DNA from: Amphiscolops sp. MND2022
Lineage: Eukaryota
DNA length: 64,000 bases
Assembly (NCBI GenBank): GCA_964187785.1
Contig: OZ076409.1
Span: 42,038,001-42,102,000, forward strand
Reading direction: 5' to 3'
Shown: one piece after another, positions 5,290-8,200 of the stretch
How positions within the stretch are numbered: the first letter of the stretch is position 1
Layout: every line of letters begins with the position of its first letter
Notes under the pieces: generated by a model
Databases searched by the model: none
The model's input: the letters and a program-made list of their open reading frames with translations, nothing else
Told to the model about the DNA's origin: nothing
Made by a program: the position numbers and the translations under genes

Positions 5290-8200
5290 TTATTTTGGCT
5301 TTACCACGTACTCGTCTATGCCGAAGCGTACTGGCGGTCGACGATTCCGTGTCGTTTCGATTATCAGCGAATCTGAACGTTCGCTTTCGTTGTCCTCCTC
5401 GTCTGAAGGAGGCGAAGTATTTCTATTGTCGTTTATTTCTTCATAAACAGGAAATGAAGACTCCTCTGACGGTGCGGGGACGTCTATATACAACGGGCAA
5501 TTAGTCAGAGTAGTCTCTTCGTCGTTTTCGGCGCTTATCACGCGGGGAACGTCATGAAATGACACGTGCGGCCGGTTTTTATTGGCTTGGATTTCCGCCG
5601 AAGTAGGGCGGAACACATGATACGGTCTATTTTCGGTCTCTTGGTCGGATGAATCGGATTCATCTGCGATTTCTTCATAACTCGGTAGCGTCTTTGTCGC
5701 CACTCGTTCGGATCGTTTCGGGAGGGATTCGCCAAAATACGGTTTAAGACGATTAAAATGGATATTCTGCCACTTTTCCGGGCAACCTGGCTTGTAAATC
5801 TGATAGTTCACTTCACTTGTCTGACTCAATACTTCGTATGGGCCGTGCCAAGGGAGATGGAACTTTCGGGATTTCGCTTTGTGTGGCTCGAATAACCACA
5901 CTCGGTCTCCTGTTTTAAAACTTTTTCCATGGACCTTTTTCTGATAATAATCCTTCTGACGACGTTGTTCTTTCCCCATAGTCAGTTGCGCATGACTATG
6001 TACTTCGAATAGTTTATCACTCAACTCGGCTCCTACCTCGCCTAATTCTAAACGGGGGTCGCCAGGAGGTTTCGGATAGAATAAGTCGATCGGATATTGT
6101 GCTTCTCTCCCGTACAACATCGAAAACGGGGTCGTACCGAGGGTCTTATGTACGGTGGTATTGTACACAAAATTGACGTGGGGCAAGTAGAGATCCCACT
6201 CCTGCGGTTTTTCGGCGCAATACTTAGAAATAGTATCGGCAATGACTCTATTGAACCTTTCTACTTGACCATTTCCTTGGGGATGATACGGAGAAGTCCT
6301 AGTTTTATCGATCATGAAAACTTGGCAAATATCTTTCATTACTTCGCTGTTGAAGTTAGTTCCTTGATCCGTATGTAAAGTATCGGGAGCTCCAAATTTC
6401 AAAATCCACTCTTCGACTAAAGTCGTGGCCACCGTCTTAGCCGTCATGTCTTTCAAAGGAACGGCAACCGCATACTTTGTATACAAATCGGATATAACTA
6501 AAATGTATCGCGCCTGTGACTTTTTCGCTAGCGTTACGGGTCCCAAGATATCTGCTGCAACAATACGAAACGGCGCCTTTGCTTCGATTGTTTGCAAATG
6601 AGCTTTTCGACCTTTTCCCGCCGTTGATCTAGCCGCGCAACGCGTGCATTTTGCAATATACTTTTCTACACTTGACCTGAGACCAGGCCACCAAAATCTC
6701 TGTTTAATCCTCGATAACGTTTTCTCGGCTGCAAAATGACCTCCGCTAAGAGGGGAGTCATGTAACTGATGTAACACTTCGGCTCTCATAGTCGAAGGAA
6801 CTACTGCCTGCCATATTTCACGTTCACGATTGCTAGGTTTCCATTTTCGATAAAGGACTCGATTGGCCAGCGCTAGCTGATCCCAATTACTCCAAAGTTC
6901 TAACGCCTCTGGACAACTCCATTCTAATGCTACTTCTCTGGGGATGGGGTTGGGCCCTAAATCTTCCAATGTACCATCTATCCGAATTCCACGTTTAACC
7001 ATTTCACGGAATAGTAATCCCGTACTACGATCCATTCTCTGACCATACGCTAGGTCGCTATCCGATCTAGTCCATGAGATATGCCCCCCCACTTGCTCTG
7101 ATACTAACATTTCTTCCGGGGTAACGACAGAACAGGCGGAATCTACACTTGATGAACGCGGGGTACCTCGTCTTGCCGAAGTCGAAGGGTACAGATGCTC
7201 TTGGTCTCTCGGTGTATACACGGAGATCGTAAAATACGAATCTTGAAACACAACCTCTAGACAAATAGCTACATTCACCCACTCCAATTCGTCATCGACG
7301 CAACCTATTCTAGGCATTGCAAGTTTGGAAATTCCATGGGAACTAGCATGTTCTTTCACTCTCAATAGACTTTCTTTTAATACATCGTATTTAGCAACTT
7401 CTCCGTGGCAATGCTTGGTGATCAATATATACAAATATCGTCCTTTTGTGACATCTCGGTACACTAGAAAGCCTCCAACACGATTTACCGACTCTGCGAG
7501 AGGTGGTAAATACGAATACGTTTTCACAAACGACTTCATGGGAGTAGTGGCTACTCTCATGTCGGCAGATACACACAAAACTAAGGAATCGGGGGATTCG
7601 AAAAAATCCCCTTCTCGATAACGGACTACCTCTCTAGGTGAGTGAGAAATTTGCATTTTCAAATGCCGAGCTACATCCTCGGAGTTTTTCAATTTCTCAC
7701 GAGCTTTGGTTCGGGCGGCTCGAAGATCGCGTTCGGCTTCAAACAAAGCACTATCAAATTCGGTGAATTCGGGGATCGGTCCCCTTAACGCATCTTCTTC
7801 GCCGGGCAGCCATTGGGGTACGTCATTCGGTCGTCGACTAAGACCGTCCGCATTACAATGTTTATCACCTGGACGATGTACTATTTGATAGTCATACTCC
7901 TGAAGTTTCTGAACCATTCGAAAAGTCATTCCATCCGCATTTTGCCTAAACAACCATTGAAGACTTGCATGATCTGTGCGAATAATACATTTGGATCCGT
8001 AAATGTACGGTCTGAACCACTGGACGGCTTGAACTACACCTAGTGCTTCTCTTTTGGTTGTTGCATAATTTACCTCCGTCTTGGTTAGAACTCGCGACTC
8101 AAAGGCAATTGGATACTCTATCCCATCGATCACTTGCGACAAAACTGCGCCGAGCGCCGTATCACTAGCATCGGTATCAATAATGAACGGGAGTTCAAAA

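Follow-up and report, generated by a model that had tools for sequence, protein, structure and literature searches.

A TARG1-type macrodomain with an altered ADP-ribose pocket inside the Pol of a young Ty3/Gypsy element

Macrodomains are established tools of counter-defence in RNA viruses and phages. To our knowledge, a role in retrotransposons has barely been described. Already known are the macro domain proteins that teleost endogenous retroviruses sometimes encode (Basta et al., 2009, via an excerpt of PMC4977317); these are LTR retroelements with a macro domain, as is the element described here, but they are Epsilon-like rather than Ty3/Gypsy, and the overlap with what is known may be greater than that excerpt conveys. 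Coronavirus Mac1 and alphavirus nsP3 likewise place a macrodomain in a replicase polyprotein, with active and inactive versions recurring across related lineages, and macrodomain activity has been lost repeatedly in host PARPs and RNA viruses (PMC10221186, in excerpt). The viral domains belong to another class, however (9–14% identity), whereas the domain considered here is TARG1-type and lies in a reverse-transcribing element. ADP-ribosylation by SIRT6 aids LINE-1 silencing (PMC4695847, in excerpt). A TARG1-type domain in a Gypsy Pol is apparently undescribed: the literature searched, which excluded subscription journals and Repbase, yielded no paper on one, and no macro-domain passage was found in PMC5210030 or PMC9040795. 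One automatic database name pairs 'transposase' with 'O-acetyl-ADP-ribose deacetylase'.

The closest described protein, human TARG1 (OARD1, C6orf130; PDB 4J5Q, 4J5R, 4J5S, 2L8R), is the best match of the Pol domain by both sequence and fold. The two have K84, T83, D125 and S35 in common (residue numbers throughout are those of human TARG1, counted from a phmmer alignment), but G41, G43, I44, H32, G123 and L124 are replaced in the Pol domain, which is also less basic; furthermore, TARG1 stands alone, whereas the Pol domain is fused inside a polyprotein. The macrodomain of the DarG antitoxin (PDB 5M31, 5M3E, 5M3I) is of the same fold class (TM 0.73–0.76), but is 17–18% identical to the Pol domain, and the Gypsy element has no linked toxin gene.

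The element and its macrodomain

The DNA analysed, hereafter the window, is a stretch of 64,000 nucleotides from Amphiscolops sp. MND2022 (contig OZ076409.1, positions 42,038,001 to 42,102,000). Its minus strand carries a full-length element (Table 1) that belongs to Ty3/Gypsy (Metaviridae), as judged by the PR-RT-RH-IN order of its Pfam domains and by its two LTRs, target-site duplication, primer-binding site and polypurine tract. The LTRs differ at 13 of 3161 aligned bases (99.6% identity) and the genome holds at least 150 copies, all 150 of the 958 candidates that were scored matching at 92–100% identity; the element is young and multi-copy. Its LTRs are unusually long, at 3.16 kb, and each contains a 29–30 bp tandem repeat. 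The tRNA 3' end that matches the primer-binding site occurs 346 times in the genome by pattern search (control, 0), and ARAGORN called tRNA-Asn in two of three loci with this end; the matches include a dense tandem run at about 47.64–47.70 Mb of G000:C7, likely a tRNA array. The slippery heptamer in the gag/pol overlap suggests that Pol is expressed by −1 frameshifting, while downstream of the heptamer no significant RNA structure was found (z −1.07). Elsewhere in the window, Pfam identifies a queuine tRNA-ribosyltransferase ORF (38758–39543, minus strand) and a DDE_1 transposase fragment (36361–37266, plus strand).

The first-pass annotation had described a TARG1/OARD1-type macrodomain inside Pol, between RNase H and integrase. 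Identity and position were both confirmed. The domain lies in frame at Pol residues 832–970, flanked by Pfam assignments that end RNase H at about residue 765 and begin the integrase zinc finger at residue 1108. It is missed when Pfam is used alone, since the match to the Macro profile is weak and under the cut-off (E = 0.064). In contrast, a phmmer search of PDB sequences returned human TARG1 at E = 2.2e-20 (query 9–146), the next, unrelated match having E = 0.33. An AlphaFold2 model from an alignment of 73 sequences reached a pLDDT of 90.8 and a pTM of 0.86, and Foldseek ranked TARG1 first against it (4j5q, E = 1.4e-12, TM 0.83, 35% identity), with DarG next; a model from the single sequence was useless (pLDDT 36.5). 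The folding alignment contained TARG1-like homologues, which makes the fold match dependent on the sequence match. By sequence search and predicted structure, the domain is TARG1-type (ALC1-like), with a Macro fold nearest to that of TARG1. Phage matches (nine records; 29–35% identity among the eight listed) were no closer than animal TARG1.

Table 1. Features of the element and of related loci (numbers are window positions; L numbers are other loci of the genome)
Feature	Position or locus	Strand	Details
Ty3/Gypsy element, full-length	583-14757	-	LTRs, target-site duplication, PBS, PPT, PR-RT-RH-IN order
5' LTR, 3162 bp	11596..14757	-	TG..CA ends
3' LTR, 3161 bp	583..3743	-	pairwise LTR alignment
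Target-site duplication, 5 bp	578-582 and 14758-14762		flanking both LTRs
Primer-binding site	11577..11594	-	complementary to tRNA-Asn(GTT); sequence match
Polypurine tract	3744..3756	-	
gag ORF	10089..11504	-	471 aa stop to stop, zinc knuckle; Pfam
Slippery heptamer	10113..10119	-	in gag/pol overlap; sequence
pol ORF	5290..10122	-	1610 aa; Pfam
Protease	9424-9717	-	in pol ORF; Pfam
RT	8464-9102	-	in pol ORF; Pfam
RNase H	7828-8277	-	in pol ORF; Pfam
TARG1-type macrodomain	7213-7629	-	altered ADP-ribose pocket
Loop-1 positions G43 and I44	7540..7545	-	G43: A 31, T 10; I44: P 41/41
Catalytic lysine K84	7414..7416	-	K 41/41
Loop-2 positions G123, L124, D125	7291..7299	-	V 41/41, D 41/41, D 40/41
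Integrase	5728-6822	-	zinc finger, core, C-terminal domain; Pfam
Eighth, pocket-altered Gypsy family	53306-63999, continuing in L031	-	TARG1-type domain between protease and RT
Eighth family, truncated second copy	48067-50669	-	
Three motif-intact families	L064, L067, L077		domain between RNase H and integrase
Motif-intact family	L068		domain between protease and RT
Motif-intact family	L069		domain after integrase
Non-autonomous LTR elements, motif-intact	L065, L066, L073, L078, L080, L081		one gag-protease-macrodomain ORF, 834-862 aa (split in L078)
Helicase-PARP fusions	L136-L139, L141, L143		1829-2096 aa; superfamily-1 helicase (ZNFX1-like in 3) with one or two PARP domains

The ADP-ribose pocket and selection on the domain

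In human TARG1, each of G43E, I44E and G123E abolishes ADP-ribose binding and catalysis (PMC5928194, in excerpt), and the published TARG1 pattern TKx(30,35)Px[IL]GxGxD requires glycine at G123 (PMC6397177, in excerpt). We compared the window copy with 40 fetched copies picked for an open 1610-aa frame (n = 41). The catalytic residues Lys84 and Asp125, together with Thr83 and Ser35, are present in the Pol domain: K84, T83, G121 and C122 are kept in 41/41 copies, and D125, S35 and C33 in 40/41. The retention of K84 and D125, and the reading of the GAGIA loop as ATTPM with valine at G123, had all been noted at first pass, and all hold on the phmmer alignment. G43 and I44, which line the pocket in active TARG1, are replaced in every one of the 41 copies; the published pattern fails because its second glycine (G123) is V in 41/41, and the H32 position is L in 41/41.

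These positions were also surveyed in 133 homologues outside the clade to which the element belongs. G43 is kept in 133/133, G123 in 131/133 and H32 in 128/133, and the I44 position holds only I, V, L or F; this census, from a representative search, took the best-matching domain per protein and excluded members of the clade as well as fragments of them, a design that favours intact motifs. Aspartate at L124 occurs in one of the 138 aligned domains with G123 retained. Within the clade, the loop-1 glycines and G123 are absent in all six subfamilies, while K84 is kept in four of them and D125 in five, the K84 position being R in subfamily P0007. Because G43, I44 and G123 are replaced, the Pol domain is likely to be inactive; the published TARG1 mutants are glutamates, not V, A, T or P, so we infer, rather than observe, a dead enzyme. 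Loss of canonical ADP-ribose hydrolysis, shared by three of the four readings weighed below, is quite probable.

As proposed at first pass, dN/dS was assessed across copies. In the macrodomain, variants shared by at least two of the 41 copies comprise 14 nonsynonymous and 30 synonymous changes (omega 0.14, p = 2e-10 versus neutrality), and pairwise omega over the 41 copies is 0.19; the macrodomain is under purifying selection. This constraint is not above that of the flanking linkers (6 nonsynonymous : 20 synonymous, omega 0.07 and 0.10; Fisher p = 0.59) and falls below that of RT, connection, RNase H and integrase core (3 : 90; p = 8e-6 versus the macrodomain). The Pol tail has 37 nonsynonymous and 37 synonymous changes (p = 0.058 versus the macrodomain). 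Between clade subfamilies, identity is 51–67% in the macrodomain and 45–60% in the linkers. Of 146 alignment columns, 49 are invariant in the clade and 26 of those are new to it, and in quick trees the clade's stem branch measures 2.63 or 1.63 changes per site for the macrodomain, versus 0.28–0.49 for RT–RNase H. Several of the between-family comparisons had saturated dS.

Related families, host genes and the origin of the domain

Eight Gypsy families of this genome carry TARG1-type domains at four positions; six families are motif-intact and two are separately degenerate. The six were drawn from 20 returned and 18 fetched loci after 150 of 988 candidates for a canonical TARG1 query had been scored. 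The non-autonomous elements (Table 1) gave no match to RT, RNase H or integrase in any of the six loci, and in the five that were checked the LTR pairs are 96.5–99.5% identical; their macrodomain has an omega of 0.20, versus 0.42 and 0.55 in the flanking parts. Across motif-intact transposon macrodomains, omega is 0.12–0.20. The locus with the domain after integrase (L069:3-5213, plus strand) is a Gypsy Pol that also has a weak dUTPase match before RT. Two related Gypsy Pols, P0192 and P0194, carry a GDSL esterase domain; in P0192 this domain lies downstream of integrase, and a degenerate macrodomain precedes the protease.

The other degenerate family, the eighth, is a sister of L068 and unrelated to the element at 583–14757; it includes an env-like ORF (Monjiviricetes fusion, PF24664), with a MATH-domain ORF nearby. 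Its macrodomain has E at both the G123 and the D125 position, and the family gives 70 matches at E ≤ 1e-30, with an omega of 0.054 and a dS of 1.06 over five copies. Since this second, unrelated family is also pocket-altered, the pocket has been lost at least twice, with the domain kept both times.

The survey of Gypsy Pol proteins suggested by the first-pass annotation indicated that the fusion is not unique. Outside this genome, four Gypsy Pols with a motif-intact domain were present among the 50 longest of 150 listed representative matches (1099 found); three have the domain after integrase, and one, from a weevil, has it between RNase H and integrase. This Rhynchophorus ferrugineus Pol (XP_076269006.1, XP_076256106.1) shows the same order as here, RT, RNase H, TARG1-type macrodomain, integrase, but it has intact pocket motifs and an RT with no close relationship to the clade of the window element. 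When Pol-length proteins were searched by word index for the macro region, only close relatives were returned (6/48 and 3/174 candidates), and these searches are therefore uninformative on breadth. In P0014, P0028, P0056, P0088, P0091, P0094 and P0147, a motif-intact TARG1-type domain is followed by a degenerate second copy.

The host has a single-copy, motif-intact TARG1-like gene (L044:1498-2442, minus strand) and 32 PARP-domain matches. Six of eight chosen long PARP ORFs are helicase–PARP fusions, which are candidate host PARP effectors.

Among 114 further Pol relatives found via RT–RNase H, five carry the macrodomain. The spacing between RNase H and integrase is 329–341 aa in carriers of a domain in this slot and 127–148 aa in the ten nearest relatives without one there, which shows an insertion of about 190–200 aa relative to the latter. 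All six clade subfamilies have a spacing of 329–335 aa, and by this measure none has a clean deletion of the macrodomain. In a quick tree the clade joins domain-less relatives (SH-aLRT 99), and the motif-intact families with a domain in this slot fall elsewhere. A single origin with those RNase H–macrodomain–integrase families was considered and judged unlikely, given this grouping and RTs that are 42% identical. These data are compatible both with one old capture followed by losses and with several captures. Quick trees of the 140-residue domain place the host gene, the other transposon domains and cellular TARG1 in open forks, so that the donor is not separated.

Readings of the Pol domain

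With moderate confidence, we favour the reading that this TARG1-type domain is a likely pseudo-enzyme, kept in a young Gypsy Pol as a folded, probably protein-binding, module. An ancestor would have taken up a working TARG1-type eraser, of the sort apparently carried by six other Gypsy families of this genome; because Pol would be made by a −1 frameshift and packaged, the domain would travel with RT and integrase. A burst of change would then have removed the pocket glycines, and a new surface, fixed afterwards, would have been held ever since. We count in favour of this reading the 26 clade-new invariant columns together with the long stem branch, and the eighth family's separate pocket loss at an omega of 0.054. 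Two observations count against it: K84 and D125 survive in 4/6 and 5/6 subfamilies, a retention not required of a dead enzyme, and selection on the macrodomain is like that on the linkers and weaker than that on RT, RNase H and integrase.

The same likeness to the linkers, in omega as in identity between subfamilies, would suit a domain that has lost its activity, gained no new role and stays only because stops, frameshifts or misfolding in the middle of a polyprotein are lethal to the element; the nearest RT relatives without the domain also look complete. We nevertheless consider such a passenger rather unlikely, because no clean deletion occurs in six subfamilies of near-constant spacing, because 26 invariant residues are new to the clade, and because motif-intact transposon macrodomains evolve at a similar omega, 0.12–0.20, a rate that is therefore typical of the domain and no sign of decay.

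It is unlikely that the domain is still an active eraser, or an enzyme of shifted specificity, whose Lys/Asp pair acts from a remodelled pocket on Pol or cDNA bearing ADP-ribose, or else on some related adduct, acyl or nucleotide. K84, T83, S35 and D125 are indeed kept in nearly all copies, the host has its 32 PARP-domain matches, and SCO6735 is active without both catalytic residues, the mechanism varying among ALC1-like macrodomains (PMC9411070, in excerpt). Nevertheless, all three pocket positions tested by mutation are replaced, L124 has become an aspartate seen once among 138 G123-keeping domains, and subfamily P0007 has arginine for K84. Position G130 of SARS-CoV-2 Mac1 we take to correspond to TARG1 G123. 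G130V inactivates Mac1 (PMC12992833, in excerpt), and the TARG1 pattern, which includes the G123 glycine, fails here (PMC6397177, in excerpt). The first-pass proposal of a counter-defence hydrolase thus finds little support in this element, where G43, I44 and G123 are replaced in 41/41 copies; it is better placed in the six motif-intact families, whose domains may counter host ADP-ribose tagging.

A module binding RNA or cDNA through a basic surface, in aid of reverse transcription or integration, is very unlikely: TARG1 G43E and G123E do still bind RNA (PMC5928194, in excerpt) and the domain lies between RT–RNase H and integrase, but it is not basic (pI 6.5; clade 5.1–8.5), whereas, of six motif-intact transposon domains from the same genome, five have a pI of 9.0–9.8, and the host gene has one of 9.6; the low charge of the Pol domain weakens the case.

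The lesson of the window domain, probably a pseudo-enzyme, is the more modest one, and the wider family pattern matters more. We suggest tentatively that animal Gypsy elements may repeatedly capture TARG1-type erasers as a counter to host PARPs, with the expanded ZNFX1-like helicase–PARP fusions as possible targets in this genome; that elements lacking RT and integrase may keep the eraser; and that lineages like this one may convert the eraser to a decoy or adaptor without catalysis. That a single genome shows repeated capture alongside retention and separate losses provides a testable case for ADP-ribosylation in the conflict between hosts and retrotransposons. Because this genome combines intact and altered domains in eight families with a single-copy host control and candidate PARP effectors, restriction of LTR retrotransposons by ADP-ribosylation can be put to the test in it. 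If the suggestion is true, ADP-ribosylation would be contested between hosts and transposons, as it already is between hosts and RNA viruses or phages.
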